DNA of 32,000 nt, taken from assembly GCA_004284765.1 (NCBI GenBank), contig NQJD01000026.1, forward strand, positions 1-32,000, read 5' to 3'. Numbering within the stretch: position 1 is the stretch's first letter; every line of letters starts with the position of its first letter. Shown here one piece after another: positions 5,396 to 9,373 of this stretch. The translations under genes and the position numbers were made by a program. This DNA comes from Candidatus Electronema aureum. Its GTDB lineage: Bacteria > Desulfobacterota > Desulfobulbia > Desulfobulbales > Desulfobulbaceae. The notes under the pieces are model-generated. The model saw only the letters and a program-made list of their open reading frames with translations, was not told the origin of the DNA and searched no databases.

Positions 5396-5441
5396 TCATT
5401 TATATTCCAGTTGAGATAAATCTCAACTGGAATATAAATGA
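5396..5441. promoter_or_regulatory. 46-bp perfect palindrome (22-bp arms, 2-nt centre) in the divergent intergenic region between the glcD-like gene and the NLR island
   Basis: The sequence is TCATTTATATTCCAGTTGAGAT-AA-ATCTCAACTGGAATATAAATGA. I checked every arm position as complementary (5396 with 5441 through 5417 with 5420). It lies 56 bp upstream of the ATG at 5497. Both flanking genes point away from it, so it is not a terminator. Confidence 0.6.
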
Positions 5442-5496
5442 TGACTCATAATACAGACCGGCTCAACCTTATCAACCTTTGCTTGAGGAGCATCTG

Positions 5497-5865
5497 ATGG
5501 ACATTTTTACTTCTGCGATCATGGCTGCGCTGGGCAATTTAGGCGTAAAGGCGGTTGGCGATGCCTATGAGGGTGTAAAAGCACTGGTTCAGCGCAAGTT
5601 CGGCGCGGACCATAAGATGACCAAAGCGATTGAAGAGCTTGAGCAAGAGCCTGACTCGGACGGCTGGAAGCTCGTTCTGCAAGAGGCAGCGAAAAAAGCT
5701 GGTGCGGACAAGGATGCCGAGATTATGAAGGCGGTTCAAGCATTGCTGGATGCGGTGAAGGCGCAGCCGGGTGGCGAAAAAGCTATTCAGCAGATCATCA
5801 ATCAGCAGGTGAGCGGCAGCGGACACATCTTTTCTGGCAGTGGAAATGTAACCGTCACCAAATAA
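5497..5865 (+). CDS. Small alpha-helical protein (122 aa) with a glycine-zipper-like hydrophobic N-terminal helix and a C-terminal G/S-rich motif shared with the downstream NLR. Candidate Bell-like amyloid-signalling effector.
   Basis: ATG 5497 is preceded by GAGGAG at 5485-5490; the ORF-track TTG at 5479 is less likely. The N-terminus is MDIFTSAIMAALGNLGVKAVGDAY. The middle is K/E/A-rich and helical-looking. The C-terminus is IINQQVSGSGHIFSGSGNVTVTK*. The stop TAA overlaps the next ATG (TAATG at 5863-5867). Confidence 0.8.
   Translation: MDIFTSAIMAALGNLGVKAVGDAYEGVKALVQRKFGADHKMTKAIEELEQEPDSDGWKLVLQEAAKKAGADKDAEIMKAVQALLDAVKAQPGGEKAIQQIINQQVSGSGHIFSGSGNVTVTK
5794..5862 (+). other. C-terminal signalling-type motif of the small protein (IINQQVSGSGHIFSGSGNVTVTK)
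   Basis: 14 of 20 aligned residues are identical to residues 5-24 of the adjacent NLR, including an identical 8-residue core GSGHIFSG. Confidence 0.75.
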
Positions 5866-8414
5866 TGGCTGACAAGATTGATCAGACCGTTCAGGGTAGC
5901 GGTCATATCTTTTCCGGCACCGGTGATGTTCATGTCGAACATCATCATTACCCTCCCGGAACCGCTCCTCCCTCCCCGCCGCCCCCTCTCTCCGCTAAAT
6001 TCGACCTCTCCCGCCTGCCGACGACCGGTTCCGCGCTGTTTGGCAGGGACGACGAGCTTGCGCTGATTGATCGAGCCTGGCAGGAGAGCGGAACCAACGT
6101 TCTCGTGCTGACTGCGATGGGTGGCGCGGGCAAAACATCGCTGCTGCGGAAGTGGATTGACGATAAGCGGTATCGCGGCGCGGATGCGGTGTACACTTGG
6201 TCGTTTTATTTGCAGGGATCAAGCGGTGAGGAGCAGGCTTCAGCGGCTGAATTCTTTGACAACGCGCTGGCCTGGTTCGGTCATGACGGCAGCCCGATCC
6301 GCTCGGAGCATAACCGGGGCGTGAAATTGGCTGAATTGGTCTGCCGCCAGCGCACGCTGCTGCTGCTCGACGGCTTGGAGCCGCTCCAGCACCCCTTGGG
6401 CGGGCCGATGAACGGCGCGCTCAAGGACAAGGGCCTCGTCAGCCTGTGCGTGCAGCTTGCGGCGGACAACAACGGCCTCCTGCTCATATCCTCCCGCCAG
6501 CCGGTGATGGAGCTGAACGGCAGGCCGCATCAGCAGCAGCACGAGCTGGAGCCGCTCAACGCCGCAGCGGGCATCTCCTTGTTCCACGCCGCAGGGATCA
6601 AGGGCACCGACAAGGAGCTGACCGACACGGTGAAGGCGTACAACGGCCACGCTCTGTCCCTCAGCCTGCTGGCCAAGTACCTGAGCGAATACGAGAAGGG
6701 CGACATCCGCCAGCAGGACACGCTGCGCGGCCTGACCGAGTTCCCGGAGGCCACCCGCGACAGCCTCCACGCCTTCAAGGTGATGTCCGCCTATGAGCGG
6801 CAGCTCTTCGGCAGCCCGGATTTGCAGATCCTCTTCTGCCTTGGCCTGTTCGACCGCCCGGCTGCGGCGGAGGTCATGTTTTTTTTGCAGAAGGAGGGCC
6901 TCGTCGGTCTGCCCAACGACGAGCGGGTGTACCGCGCCGCCTGCGGAAGGCTGCGCAAGCAAGGGCTGCTGAACAAGATCCGCCCGGAGCAGCCGCAGAA
7001 CCTCGACACGCACCCGCTGGTGCGCCAGTATTTCGGCAAGAGGCTATCCGCGCTGCACCCGGAGAGCTGGCGGCAGGCGCACGTCCGGCTGTACGAGCAC
7101 TTCAAGGCCGCAGCCAAGGAGCTGCCCGATACCTTGGAGGAGATGGAGCCGTTGTTTGCGGCGGTGCGGCACGGCTGCGCAGCGGGGATGCGCCAGAATG
7201 CACTGGATGAGGTGTACTGGCTGAGGATAAAGAGGCAAAAAGAGCATTACTTAACCAGTAAACTTGGCGCATTTGCTGCTGACTTAGCCGTCGTATCCTA
7301 CTTTTTTGCCGTGCCGTGGAGTATGCCAGCCGCAGAATTGACCGATGATGCCAAGGCATGGATACTCATTGTGGCTGCATTCGGCCTGCGTGCCATTGGA
7401 CGGCTGACCGAGGCGGCAGAGCCGATGCAGGCAGGGCTGGAAATGGGAATTCAACAGGAAGATTGGAAAGGAGCAGCGGCAGCTGCCTCCAACCTCAGCG
7501 AATTATATCTGACTGTCGGCGATGTTGCGCAGGCAGTTGCCGCTGGACGGCAGAGCGTGGATCTTGCTGATCAGAGCGGAGACGCTGCGGGGCGCATAAC
7601 CTGCCGTACAACGCTCGCCGATGCCCTGCATCAGGCCGGAGAACTGGCGGATAGTCATGCCTTATTCGCTGAGGCGGAAAAAATGCAGCAGGAATGGCAG
7701 CCGGAATACGACCGGCTCTATTCATTGCGGGGATTTCGCTATTGCGACCTGCTGCTGGCTGGCGGCGCATGGCCGGAAGTGCGCGGGAGGGCGGAGAAGG
7801 CAATAAAAATCGCGGAAAAGTATCTGGGCTTATTAGATGTTGCCTTGGACAAACTTTCTCTGGGCCGCGCCGCTGTGCAAGAAGCGGTTGTGCAAGCTGA
7901 TCTGTCTATCATTTCAGGCGTTGCCCCGGACTTGGCCTGCGTTCAACCTATCAGTGGATACGTTGAACCTATCAGCCGAGGCGATGAACGTATCAGCGGA
8001 TGCGTTGAACGTATTGACGGAGCCGTCGAACGTATCGGCGGATACGATGAACCTATCCGCCGAGCCGTTGAATGGCTCGATCAGGCGGTTGATGGCCTGC
8101 GTGAAGCGGGTTATGAGGATTATTTACCGCGTGGACTGCTTGCCCGCGCCGCGTGCCGCCGCTGGGCAGCGCATTTTTCGGCTGCGGAACAGGATTTGCG
8201 GGAATGCGAAGAGATTGCCCAGCGCGGCGGAATGCAGCTGCACCTCATTGACTGCCATCTGGAGGCCGCCAGACTTGCTCGTGCCAGCGGCAGGGCCGTT
8301 CTTGGCCTCACCGCAGAGGAGCATCTGGCCGCCGCACAGGAGGGAATCGCCAAAACCTGCTATAAACGAAGGCTGGTGGAGGCGGAGGAGATTGCGGCGA
8401 TGATTCCTCAGTAG
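5865..8414 (+). CDS. STAND NTPase of NLR architecture (849 aa). Domain order: N-terminal short motif, His/Pro-rich linker, NB-ARC-like P-loop domain, C-terminal TPR-like helical repeats.
   Basis: The N-terminus is MADKIDQTVQGSGHIFSGTGDVHVEHHHYPPGTAPPSPPPP. The FGRDDEL box precedes Walker A AMGGAGKTSLL (nt 6120-6140). Walker B is RTLLLLDGLE. A GLPLA-like block is YNGHALSLSLLAKYL. The C-terminal half is Ala/Leu-rich and helical-repeat-like (..AASNLSELYLTVGDVAQAVAAGRQSVDLA..TTLADALHQAGELADSHALFAEAEKM..). Confidence 0.88.
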   Translation: MADKIDQTVQGSGHIFSGTGDVHVEHHHYPPGTAPPSPPPPLSAKFDLSRLPTTGSALFGRDDELALIDRAWQESGTNVLVLTAMGGAGKTSLLRKWIDDKRYRGADAVYTWSFYLQGSSGEEQASAAEFFDNALAWFGHDGSPIRSEHNRGVKLAELVCRQRTLLLLDGLEPLQHPLGGPMNGALKDKGLVSLCVQLAADNNGLLLISSRQPVMELNGRPHQQQHELEPLNAAAGISLFHAAGIKGTDKELTDTVKAYNGHALSLSLLAKYLSEYEKGDIRQQDTLRGLTEFPEATRDSLHAFKVMSAYERQLFGSPDLQILFCLGLFDRPAAAEVMFFLQKEGLVGLPNDERVYRAACGRLRKQGLLNKIRPEQPQNLDTHPLVRQYFGKRLSALHPESWRQAHVRLYEHFKAAAKELPDTLEEMEPLFAAVRHGCAAGMRQNALDEVYWLRIKRQKEHYLTSKLGAFAADLAVVSYFFAVPWSMPAAELTDDAKAWILIVAAFGLRAIGRLTEAAEPMQAGLEMGIQQEDWKGAAAAASNLSELYLTVGDVAQAVAAGRQSVDLADQSGDAAGRITCRTTLADALHQAGELADSHALFAEAEKMQQEWQPEYDRLYSLRGFRYCDLLLAGGAWPEVRGRAEKAIKIAEKYLGLLDVALDKLSLGRAAVQEAVVQADLSIISGVAPDLACVQPISGYVEPISRGDERISGCVERIDGAVERIGGYDEPIRRAVEWLDQAVDGLREAGYEDYLPRGLLARAACRRWAAHFSAAEQDLRECEEIAQRGGMQLHLIDCHLEAARLARASGRAVLGLTAEEHLAAAQEGIAKTCYKRRLVEAEEIAAMIPQ
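5877..5936 (+). other. N-terminal motif of the NLR (IDQTVQGSGHIFSGTGDVHV), homologous to the C-terminus of the upstream small protein
   Basis: See 5794-5862. The shared core is encoded with four synonymous codon differences (ggc/ggt, gga/ggt, cac/cat, tct/tcc). Confidence 0.75.
7950..8075 (+). repeat. Six in-frame tandem 21-bp (heptapeptide) repeats inside the C-terminal region of the NLR gene
   Basis: The units start at 7950, 7971, 7992, 8013, 8034 and 8055. They encode ISGYVEP / ISRGDER / ISGCVER / IDGAVER / IGGYDEP / IRRAVEW. A degenerate seventh unit (DLACVQP) precedes them at 7929-7949. Confidence 0.85.
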
Positions 8415-8434
8415 GGGCGTTTCGCGAAACGCCC
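8415..8434 (+). terminator. GC-rich 20-bp perfect palindrome immediately after the NLR stop codon; probable terminator hairpin
   Basis: GGGCGTTTCGCGAAACGCCC is fully self-complementary and starts 1 nt after the stop. The trailing TTACATTATAC is only weakly U-rich. Confidence 0.5.
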
Positions 8435-8524: not shown

Positions 8525-9373
8525 ATGAATGCTAACCAACACACCGGCACCTTACACATCGTTGCCACGCCCATTGGCAACCTCAGCGATATTAGCCTGC
8601 GAATGCGTGAGGTCTTAGCCACTGCGGATATTATCGCCTGCGAAGATACCCGACACACGCGCAAGCTGCTTTCTCACTTGAATATCAGCGCAAAGTTGAC
8701 CAGCTGTCACCGCGATAACGAACAACAGAAAGCCACGCAACTTGTCGAGCGGTTGCTCTCAGGCTCGACAGTGGCGTTGGTCTCTGATGCTGGGACACCC
8801 GGTCTTTCCGATCCAGGCGCAGTGCTGGTACGAGCAGCGCGGGCCGCTGGAATTACGGTAGTACCGGTGCCAGGGCCATCAGCCTTGGCAACTGCCCTTT
8901 CTGTCGCGGGGTTAGATGATTCCAACTTTTACTTTGGCGGCTTTCTCTCAGCGAAAAAGAGCGAGCGCCGGAAGCAGCTCACCGCGCTCAAGTCTTTACC
9001 TTGCCCGATGATCTTTTATGAGGCACCGCATCGGATAGAGGCTGCGTTGCAGGACTGCTTCGATATCCTCGGCGACCGACAAGCTCAAGTCTTCCGCGAG
9101 CTAACCAAGCTCCATGAAGAACATAAAGCCGGGATGCTGTCCGCGCTGATAGAGCAAATGAGCGGCAAGGTACTGGGGGAATTGGTGCTGCTCGTCAGTG
9201 GTGCAGAGGAAAAGCAGCATGAGGAACGGCCTGAAAATCTTGACGAGTTGATTCTCTGGCACCGTGATCAAGAAGGCAGTTCGCTCAAAGACGCAGCAAA
9301 GCAAATTGCCGATGCCTTAGATATGCCTAAATCGCAAGTGTATCAGCGCGCCCTAAGCCTCTGGCAGACATGA
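8525..9373 (+). CDS. rsmI: 16S rRNA (cytidine1402-2'-O)-methyltransferase RsmI
   Basis: Family blocks are GTLHIVATPIGNLSDISLRMREVLATADIIACEDTRHTRKLLSHL, VALVSDAGTPGLSDPG, VPVPGPSA and FYEAPHR. I prefer ATG 8525 (MNANQHTG..) over the upstream ORF-track start at 8453. Confidence 0.92.
   Translation: MNANQHTGTLHIVATPIGNLSDISLRMREVLATADIIACEDTRHTRKLLSHLNISAKLTSCHRDNEQQKATQLVERLLSGSTVALVSDAGTPGLSDPGAVLVRAARAAGITVVPVPGPSALATALSVAGLDDSNFYFGGFLSAKKSERRKQLTALKSLPCPMIFYEAPHRIEAALQDCFDILGDRQAQVFRELTKLHEEHKAGMLSALIEQMSGKVLGELVLLVSGAEEKQHEERPENLDELILWHRDQEGSSLKDAAKQIADALDMPKSQVYQRALSLWQT

Follow-up and report, generated by a model that had tools for sequence, protein, structure and literature searches.

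A probable Bell/NLR amyloid-signalling gene pair in the cable bacterium Candidatus Electronema aureum, with a shared motif that co-varies between effector and receptor

Candidatus Electronema aureum is a freshwater cable bacterium, an organism that lives as a multicellular filament. In a stretch of 32,000 nucleotides from its genome (contig NQJD01000026.1, positions 1 to 32,000; the whole stretch is referred to here as the window) we analysed two adjacent genes, which code for a small helical protein with a Bell domain and for an NLR-type STAND NTPase with TPR repeats, and we conclude that the pair is likely to be a two-gene cell-death module of the Bell/NLR amyloid-signalling type. This architecture had been put forward in an original prediction made without database searches, and the homology of the small protein to Bell domains, the linkage of the two genes and the co-variation of the motif that they share all favour it. 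As predicted, the first open reading frame (ORF1) encodes 122 residues and meets the second (ORF2) in a TAATG overlap at 5863-5867, and both frames are intact; their products match the NCBI proteins CDV28_1265 and CDV28_1266 of this organism with full identity. The overlap implies that the two genes are probably translationally coupled, and short overlaps are usual in published pairs, with 42% of collinear pairs overlapping (Dyrka et al., 2020, bioRxiv 10.1101/2020.01.06.895854). The positions of the features discussed below are listed in Table 1.

A shared motif is found both at the end of the effector and at the start of the receptor. Residues 101-120 of the Bell protein align without gaps with residues 5-24 of the NLR, and the 14 identical positions out of 20 that had been claimed for the two segments were recovered. 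The BLOSUM62 local score of the alignment was 71, and 5000 composition-preserving shuffles gave a mean of 17.6 (standard deviation 3.8) and a maximum of 46. At the DNA level the two copies agree at 39 of 60 nucleotides, and different codons are used at 8 of the 14 identical residues; the match has therefore been held by selection at the protein level and not by recent gene conversion. The motif is rich in G, S, V, I, N and Q, is without P or L, and consists of three short beta-prone runs (INQQV, HIF and NVTVT) parted by two SGSG turns, a pattern that is compatible with a beta-arch stack. Published BASS motifs are ~20-25 residues long, lie outside globular domains, are rich in G, N, Q, V and I and are poor in K, P and L (Dyrka et al., 2020). 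Both copies in the window have this length and composition, and neither belongs to a globular domain in the AlphaFold2 models, in which the predicted local distance difference test score (pLDDT) was below 50 at residues 105-122 of the Bell protein and at residues 1-37 of the NLR. The layout is likewise that of BASS pairs, the same motif being present at the C-terminus of the effector and at the N-terminus of the adjoining collinear NLR.

Profile comparison identifies the ORF1 product as homologous to published Bell-domain proteins. A profile hidden Markov model (HMM) made from an alignment of 26 ORF1 homologs (alignment A1) matched the cyanobacterial loci L016/L017 at E 7.9e-20 and L018 at E 6.1e-19. 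These loci encode BAZ82063.1/BAZ82062.1, BAZ83819.1/BAZ83820.1 and PSB32048.1/PSB32049.1, and Table S2 of Dyrka et al. (2020) gives the motifs of their tails and NLRs, so that the Bell assignment made originally is now tied, at ~1e-19, to pairs of the published set. The Pfam family PF20701 (HetE-N) was matched marginally, at 25.1 bits with a gathering cut-off of 25, and a precomputed PF20701 match is present in 96 of 96 close homologs of ORF1; the published cyanobacterial Bell proteins gave no PF20701 match at E<=0.01. The Bell family is large, with 2614 members at E<=0.001 in a search of 1.84 billion cluster representatives. AlphaFold2 predicted six helices across residues 3-106, with pLDDT 82-92 for residues 1-90, and a disordered stretch formed by the last 18 residues (105-122). 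The 122-residue protein thus has the build of Bell proteins, an all-alpha domain of ~100 residues within a protein of ~120-140 residues. Bell and Hell domains have an acidic residue at position 2 or 3 and a hydrophobic helix (Dyrka et al., 2020), and it can be seen that the N-terminus of the ORF1 product, MDIFTSAIMAALGNLG, has an acidic second residue and a hydrophobic helix, which is presumed to be a membrane-inserting element. The homologs of ORF1 start with MDI, MEP, MDP or MET, and these starts match the 'MEPIS' region (Ibarlosa et al., 2024, bioRxiv 10.1101/2024.11.07.622273). A sequence search of the PDB with the A1 profile returned chance helical matches only.

The ORF2 product was assigned from its sequence motifs and from its predicted fold. 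The strings FGRDDEL (residues 59-65), GGAGKTS and LLLLDGLE and the His/Pro-rich linker, all of them quoted in the original prediction, were located, and the PPPPLSxKFDLSRLP part of the linker is kept in all motif types while the motif that precedes it varies. Pfam matches to the nucleotide-binding region were below threshold, both for NB-ARC (16.7 bits, cut-off 23.5) and for NACHT (17.8 bits, cut-off 26.7), and the match to AAA_16 was also sub-threshold; among 40 homologs of ORF2, NACHT was matched in 33, NB-ARC in 22 and AAA_16 in 35 at E<=0.01, and the NTPase subclass (NB-ARC or NACHT) is ambiguous on these profiles. The TPR region scored 27.7 bits with TPR_12 (cut-off 30.1) and 21.4 bits with TPR_MalT, and a profile search matched it to the TPR regions of AfsR and LGN, with the MalT TPR also found by Foldseek. 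The AlphaFold2 model (pLDDT 83.9, predicted template modelling score 0.81) has a helical solenoid at the C-terminus and two disordered segments: one (residues 1-37) contains the motif together with a portion of the His/Pro linker, and the other spans residues 696-725. With this model Foldseek returned the STAND-TPR structure 6mfv (E 4e-13), Apaf-1 (E 1.6e-7) and Avs3 (E 6e-6), and also CED-4, plant NRC2 and MalT. The earlier description of an NB-ARC/TPR NLR therefore stands as far as the TPR repeats and the fold (Apaf-1, CED-4 and plant NLRs) are concerned, but the Pfam thresholds for NB-ARC and NACHT are not reached, and an NLR-like protein with an Apaf-1-type nucleotide-binding oligomerisation (NOD) module plus TPR repeats is a fair description of the model.

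The NOD-TPR chassis is abundant (>3700 matches), and in other organisms it carries an N-terminal TIR, SEFIR, nucleoside phosphorylase (PNP), alpha/beta-hydrolase or Mrr domain; such swapping of N-terminal domains is the modular pattern of immune NLRs. The same chassis was also seen behind N-termini that lack an amyloid-type motif, namely a hydrophobic, probably transmembrane one in P0141 and P0142, and a charged, coiled-coil-like one in P0133 from Electrothrix scaldis. Within the sensor region a loop of 7-residue repeats lies between TPR blocks, with pLDDT below 50 for residues 696-725. In homologs the repeat stretch measures 32, 39, 46 or 53 residues, in steps of 7, and the number of repeats inside the sensor region is thus polymorphic.

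Bell loci were gathered from genomes, metagenomes and the contigs of selected homologs, and each tail was compared with the start of the downstream long ORF. We found that near-identical Bell domains of cable bacteria carry clearly different tails, and that the start of the downstream NLR matches the tail each time; at least six motif types occur in cable bacteria on near-identical Bell and NLR bodies (Table 2, where the type B motif peptide sequence is QKVIGDRNIVAGGNINITL). Co-variation of the partners, which had been suggested as a check, held in the full set and within cable bacteria. For 37 non-redundant pairs the mean cognate score was 64.5 compared with 30.8±2.9 for permuted partners, with a maximum of 42.5 in 10,000 permutations, and for the 14 cable-bacterial pairs it was 54.3 compared with 36.4±2.8, the observed mean being reached in 0 of 10,000 permutations in either case. 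NLRs that are 80-84% identical to that of the window carry type B or type C starts, and the identity of type A NLRs to the window NLR is as low as 59-65%. The Bell bodies behave likewise, and motif type is uncoupled from the phylogeny of the bodies; partner matching has therefore been maintained while motifs were shuffled among bodies. Bodies of Bell proteins and NLRs with 80-85% identity differ in their motifs, yet the motifs always agree within a pair, and this isolates the motif as the determinant of specificity. Agreement extends to a single position within type A, where the residue after G-x-G is H in both partners of the window and L066 pairs and N in both partners of the pairs at L031, L065, L064, L035, L032 and L002, these eight pairs being phylogenetically non-independent.

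Table 2. Types of shared motif in Bell/NLR pairs and the loci that carry them
Type	Loci	Effector tail	NLR N-terminus
A	window, L031, L032, L035, L064, L065, L066	as in window	as in window
A'	L002, L060	VKISVTGDGNIFSGSGNVTVLR	AQTIVGNSNVFSTAGNIHIEHHHY
B	L056, L058	IGxKNIVAGxGDINIKL	QKVIGDRNIVAGGNINITLP
C	L004, L006	GDHSKAIAVTGGQNVSITA	GSHNNLINVSNSENVNIILP
E	L037	ATGSYIAQAGPGGSASVRVN	AKGSHIAQAASGGVAIVIEGN
F	L050	AGGVAVGGNVQGNVF	AGAGGVAVGGNVGGNIIINP
D/G	L057, L061, L067	long tail GGIG[MI]DIGxFKAA...	SVGxxIGVxIxQAQAPIHI

The linkage of the small protein to NLR genes was also borne out, as an NLR gene follows the small-protein homologs wherever the contig reaches far enough. Orphan Bell genes were noted separately in Electrothrix (L003 789-1127, L005 5001-5339 and L034); their tail ends early (…QQVIGEESLF, then a stop codon), no NLR follows, and they look like decayed effectors. 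The type A motif is not confined to cable bacteria, since type A-like tails are present in at least 20 of the 149 best Bell-family cluster representatives, and many Bell proteins from metagenomes have tails of this sort. Representatives from outside cable bacteria, P0404 among them, have tails such as INQTVSGTGHIFSGSGDIHV, and a Bell protein from a metagenome-assembled genome of Longimicrobium sp. (HEU4559313.1) also carries a type A-like tail.

Whole cassettes have been exchanged between strains at fixed chromosomal slots. The pair most similar to that of the window is in L066 (83-84% identical), where it lies between kdsB-like and radA-like genes; at this slot L066 has a type A cassette and L061 one of type D/G. 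Between clpX and lon the cassette is of type B in L058 and of type D/G in L067. Between a uvrD-like gene and SNase-folP-ftsH the cassette of L065 is of type A, and that of L057 is of type D and includes a different and longer NLR. Cassette type thus differs between strains at three slots. The ~40 nucleotides before the Bell ATG are nearly identical at four chromosomal contexts (the window, L066/L061, L058 and L060; alignment A2), the sequences further upstream are unrelated between Bell cassettes, and likeness to cassettes at other slots stops at the NLR stop codon. Because the leader is kept across slots and likeness ends at the stop codon, the mobile unit consists of the two genes and the short leader. 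The leader (5453-5496) marks the left edge of the cassette, and a palindrome directly after the NLR stop codon (8415-8434) marks the right edge. That cassettes are exchanged at fixed slots flanked by housekeeping genes suggests selection of the diversifying kind expected at loci for immunity or recognition. In Electronema sp. VV two pairs with different motif types lie 7 kb apart, which fits the idea that the motifs insulate parallel pathways.

Some cassettes depart from the simple two-gene form. Tandem Bell genes stand ahead of one NLR gene in L057 (5529-6432) and L065 (5457-6294), and the first Bell protein has a shortened type A tail (…NIFSGSGDVT, then a stop codon); in L057 the tail of the second Bell protein is of type D, and a different NLR is encoded, of 1143 residues and with ~14 nearly identical TPR units. 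In the type D/G cassette of L061 (6430-6440), and also in L062 and L063, the overlap reads TAACG and not TAATG, so that the NLR start is ACG while the motif frame is open; these genes could be nascent pseudogenes or could use a non-canonical start.

The mechanism best supported by these features is the one already published for such an architecture. Both genes would be co-transcribed and translationally coupled, and the NLR would stay inactive until its TPR region sensed a cue, which would most likely be some component of a phage or damage linked to infection. As the NLR oligomerised in a nucleotide-dependent manner, several disordered N-terminal motifs would come together and fold as a cross-beta nucleus, on which the C-terminal motif of the matching Bell protein would be templated; stacking of the Bell tails would then release or reorient the N-terminal hydrophobic helix, leading to attack on the cytoplasmic membrane and to cell death. 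In a clonal filament one cell would be sacrificed for its neighbours, and different motif types would prevent cross-talk between parallel sensor-effector pairs. Of this scheme, the folding of the motifs as amyloid, the templating, the toxicity to the membrane and the identity of the trigger are inferred. Prion-like fibrils were demonstrated for BASS1 and BASS3 in homologous Bell/NLR pairs (Dyrka et al., 2020), and Bab, a Bell relative, executes abortive infection in E. coli after amyloid conversion (Ibarlosa et al., 2024). An immune role may be argued in the same way, from the chassis shared with TIR, SEFIR, PNP, hydrolase and Mrr proteins, from the likeness to Avs3 and from the abortive infection brought about by Bab.

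Several results weigh against this mechanism. No defence genes neighbour the pair within the window, so the immune role rests on analogy; PADLOC models recognised neither the ORF1 nor the ORF2 product, and a search for relatives of the pair on viral contigs found none. When the ORF1 model was submitted to Foldseek no similar solved structure was returned (best E 1.8), and a fold link with Bab, HeLo or the MLKL four-helix bundle is thus hypothetical. In addition, the type D tail and the type G N-terminus share only a short [IV]GxxIG core, and simple motif identity does not fit every pair.

The type D/G pairs bear on whether the matching motifs act as amyloid templates or as a specific docking tag. 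Such a tag would join the two termini through beta-strand augmentation in a defined hetero-complex, and on activation the effector would be recruited or released stoichiometrically; no fold would be templated or propagate itself. Co-variation and disorder require a specific interaction only and not amyloid, and a tag could make do with the short core of the type D/G partners; however, in length, composition and glycine-punctuated strands the motif is like the fibril-forming BASS1 and BASS3 (Dyrka et al., 2020) and BASS11 (Ibarlosa et al., 2024), and near-identical partners suit homotypic stacking better than a complementary interface, so that we consider a docking tag quite unlikely. That the likeness of the termini has no signalling role at all, being a chance or low-complexity match of G/S-rich sequences or a by-product of duplication at the gene junction, might be entertained for so short a G- and S-rich motif, but this is refuted by a score of 71 where the maximum of 5000 shuffles was 46, by the synonymous differences at 8 of the 14 identical codons, and by the matching within their own pairs of at least six unrelated motif types at dozens of loci in two phyla. 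We regard its probability as negligible.

A different kind of alternative keeps the amyloid mechanism and changes its role from phage defence to self/non-self discrimination, as at fungal het loci, or to programmed cell death in the filament, for instance in the removal of damaged cells or in fragmentation. The presence of alternative cassette types at the same slot in different strains (L057 versus L065, L061 versus L066 and L058 versus L067) would be expected of such a system, and the position of the pair outside any defence island and the absence of relatives from the viral contigs searched agree with it. Bell/NLR pairs are enriched in multicellular prokaryotes (Dyrka et al., 2020), and their function in multicellular bacteria has been explicitly described as unresolved (Dyrka et al., 2020; Ibarlosa et al., 2024). 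Against this, the NOD-TPR chassis is common to TIR- and PNP-bearing proteins typical of antiphage systems, and abortive infection is the function of the sole Bell protein for which one has been demonstrated. Cells of different cable-bacterial filaments are, to our knowledge, not known to fuse, which also speaks against this alternative. We think a role other than defence unlikely, and an amyloid-signalling cell-death module remains our preferred reading of the pair.

Read as a Bell/NLR amyloid-signalling module, the pair has clear counterparts and some differences among published systems. Dyrka et al. (2020) defined the Bell domain and the motif classes BASS1-10, for the most part in Actinobacteria and Cyanobacteria that form filaments. 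The pairs described there have a homologous Bell domain, the same collinear and overlapping gene order, a ~20-residue motif at the same termini and a multicellular host, as does the pair in the window; the difference is that the host is here a cable bacterium of the Desulfobulbales, an order in which that survey counted no Bell domain. Its Table S1 records Bell in none of 34 Desulfobulbales genomes and in 3 of 267 Desulfobacterota genomes, with no motif pairs. The strings IFSG, FSGSG, FSGTG, NVTV, IVAG, GSGH and VAVGGN, taken from types A, B and F, are absent from the 346 pairs in the supplements of the same paper. When type A was compared with example sequences of each BASS class, BASS1 was closest, with 7 of 18 residues identical between QGSGHIFSGTGDVHVEHH and SGQGRVFQTGGDQYIEEH and a score of 35 (z ~5), pairwise scores within BASS1 being 35-79. 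A BASS1 HMM that we rebuilt from 51 Table S2 sequences, and which is not the authors' own profile, gave other type A N-termini at most 0.7-1.6 bits (E >30) and did not report the window's own pair even at E<=100. Membership of BASS1 was rejected because the rebuilt profile does not score the motif despite the pairwise resemblance; a distant relationship with BASS1 is possible, and the type A motif appears to lie outside the published classes when BASS1-BASS10 are taken as the comparison set. The earlier suspicion that both the motif and the host lineage might be new is in keeping with these tables. In the literature collection searched, no paper was found to connect cable bacteria with NLRs or amyloid signalling, and a 2026 review names only Actinobacteria and Cyanobacteria for NLR-linked amyloid signalling in bacteria. 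Among cyanobacterial relatives we also observed Bell domains fused directly to an NLR (L009 4941-7544 and L045 905-3167), an architecture that was reported to be rarer (Dyrka et al., 2020).

Bab/Agp (BASS11), an antiphage abortive-infection pair from E. coli ECOR25 (Ibarlosa et al., 2024), resembles the pair in that its effector is small, helical and related to Bell proteins, has a hydrophobic helix 1 and ends in a glycine-punctuated motif of ~20 residues, and in that the neighbouring TPR-containing sensor has the same motif at its N-terminus. It differs in that Agp is a TPR-GreA/B-PIN protein whereas the sensor in the window is a STAND NTPase, in that the Bab domain is shorter (~80 residues, 'Babybell'), and in its setting, a prophage defence hotspot as opposed to housekeeping genes. 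In the fungal HET-S/NWD2 and HELLP/PNT1 systems the N-terminal motif of an NLR templates the C-terminal prion-forming motif of a neighbouring membrane-targeting helical effector, and the pair in the window has the corresponding arrangement; however, the fungal motifs show no detectable sequence relation, the fungal effector domains are HeLo and Hell, and HET-s has two pseudo-repeats where the tail in the window has one copy. Avs proteins, 6mfv and Apaf-1/CED-4 share the NOD and helical-repeat sensor fold (Foldseek), but Avs proteins carry an N-terminal enzymatic effector of their own, while the effector in the window is a separate protein, reached via a short motif, and PADLOC models match neither protein of the pair.

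With this pair, NLR-linked amyloid signalling, described from Actinobacteria and Cyanobacteria, would be extended to cable bacteria, a third and phylogenetically distant lineage of obligately multicellular filaments, and its occurrence there would lend independent support to the proposed link between the mechanism and multicellularity. It also adds a motif family that the published lists for BASS1-10 do not contain. Systems of this kind have been described before, and the finding agrees with the current paradigm and does not challenge it; what is new is the host lineage, the unlisted motif family, the shuffling of motif types and the replacement of cassettes at slots. Near-identical bodies with swapped motifs provide ready-made swap comparisons and a clean natural system for the specificity of amyloid signalling. 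Cable bacteria are not genetically tractable, so function would need to be studied in a heterologous host. More broadly, cable bacteria may keep a set of interchangeable, insulated amyloid cassettes that recombination swaps among a few fixed slots, giving a het- or immune-like polymorphism between strains, and the commonest type (G-x-x-[NH]-[IV]-F-S-G-x-G-[ND]-V-x-V) may be a new and widespread BASS family that occurs also outside multicellular lineages, for example in Longimicrobium. This is a tentative proposal that could be right but is, on balance, a little more apt to prove too broad; if it is true, the near-isogenic cassettes are a natural experiment on how ~20 residues encode the specificity of amyloid templating.

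Table 1. Features of the Bell/NLR pair and its edges, with positions in the window
Feature	Positions	Strand	Basis or remark
Conserved leader	5453-5496	+	contains Shine-Dalgarno GAGGAG 5485-5490, 6 nucleotides before the ORF1 ATG
ORF1, Bell-domain effector gene	5497-5865	+	ATG 5497, TAA 5863-5865; 122 residues; intact
N-terminal hydrophobic helix MDIFTSAIMAALGNLGVKAVG (residues 1-21)	5497-5559	+	sequence; acidic position 2
Effector-side motif INQQVSGSGHIFSGSGNVTVTK (residues 101-122)	5797-5862	+	match to NLR N-terminus
Effector tail INQQVSGSGHIFSGSGNVTV (residues 101-120)	5797-5856	+	aligned part of motif
Stop/start overlap TAATG	5863-5867	+	ORF1 stop and ORF2 start share 1 nucleotide
ORF2, NLR-type STAND NTPase gene with TPR repeats	5865-8414	+	ATG 5865, TAG 8412-8414; 849 residues; intact
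Receptor-side motif IDQTVQGSGHIFSGTGDVHV (NLR residues 5-24)	5877-5936	+	inside disordered segment 1-37
His/Pro-rich linker EHHHYPPGTAPPSPPPPLSAKFDLSRLP (residues 25-52)	5937-6020	+	sequence
Nucleotide-binding oligomerisation module (~residues 59-420)	6039-7130	+	Walker motifs; AlphaFold2; sub-threshold NACHT/NB-ARC/AAA_16
Walker A GGAGKTS (residues 86-92)	6120-6140	+	sequence
Walker B LLLLDGLE (residues 165-172)	6357-6380	+	sequence
TPR/helical-repeat sensor region (~residues 424-849)	7134-8411	+	Pfam TPR, AlphaFold2 paired helices, Foldseek
Tandem repeat of 21 bp, 6.3 copies	7940-8072	+	TRF; 7-residue repeat (ISGxVEP/ERI...), residues 696-738
Perfect 20-nucleotide GC-rich palindrome GGGCGTTTCGCGAAACGCCC	8415-8434	+	directly after NLR stop codon; without clear T-run

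The flanks of the pair consist of housekeeping genes, with hflX and a glcD-like gene upstream and rsmI, an EamA transporter gene and groEL downstream. The original prediction had described a discrete island between conserved housekeeping genes; the housekeeping flanks were confirmed, but the adjacency of glcD and rsmI is not conserved in three other cable-bacterial genomes, those of Electronema sp. V4, E. halotolerans and Electrothrix aarhusensis, where different genes lie upstream of rsmI and a Bell/NLR pair is lacking at this position. In Electronema sp. V4 a HicA/HicB toxin-antitoxin pair (L068 3958-4559) was seen ~2.4 kb upstream of rsmI, with a 448-residue ORF and rlmN in between. The GC content of the pair is equal to that of its flanks; composition thus gives no hint that the pair was recently acquired from a foreign source, and such an origin was rejected on this ground. 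NCBIfam gave no meaningful matches for the pair, an Rfam scan of the whole window gave no matches, and a promoter and terminator scan found nothing near the pair that exceeded background. The palindrome that follows the NLR stop codon is a possible terminator hairpin.

A perfect AT-rich inverted repeat of 22+22 nucleotides (TCATTTATATTCCAGTTGAGAT, AA, ATCTCAACTGGAATATAAATGA) is present at 5396-5441, between the divergent glcD-like and Bell genes and immediately ahead of the conserved leader. It occurs once in the window and is absent from 66 related loci, and it was rejected as a feature of the cassette because no other locus has it; it may act as an operator, form a hairpin or be the scar of an insertion. 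Downstream of the pair, the true start of rsmI is probably the ATG at 8525, as the 282-residue translation from this position is 99% identical over its full length to a 282-residue RsmI ortholog.

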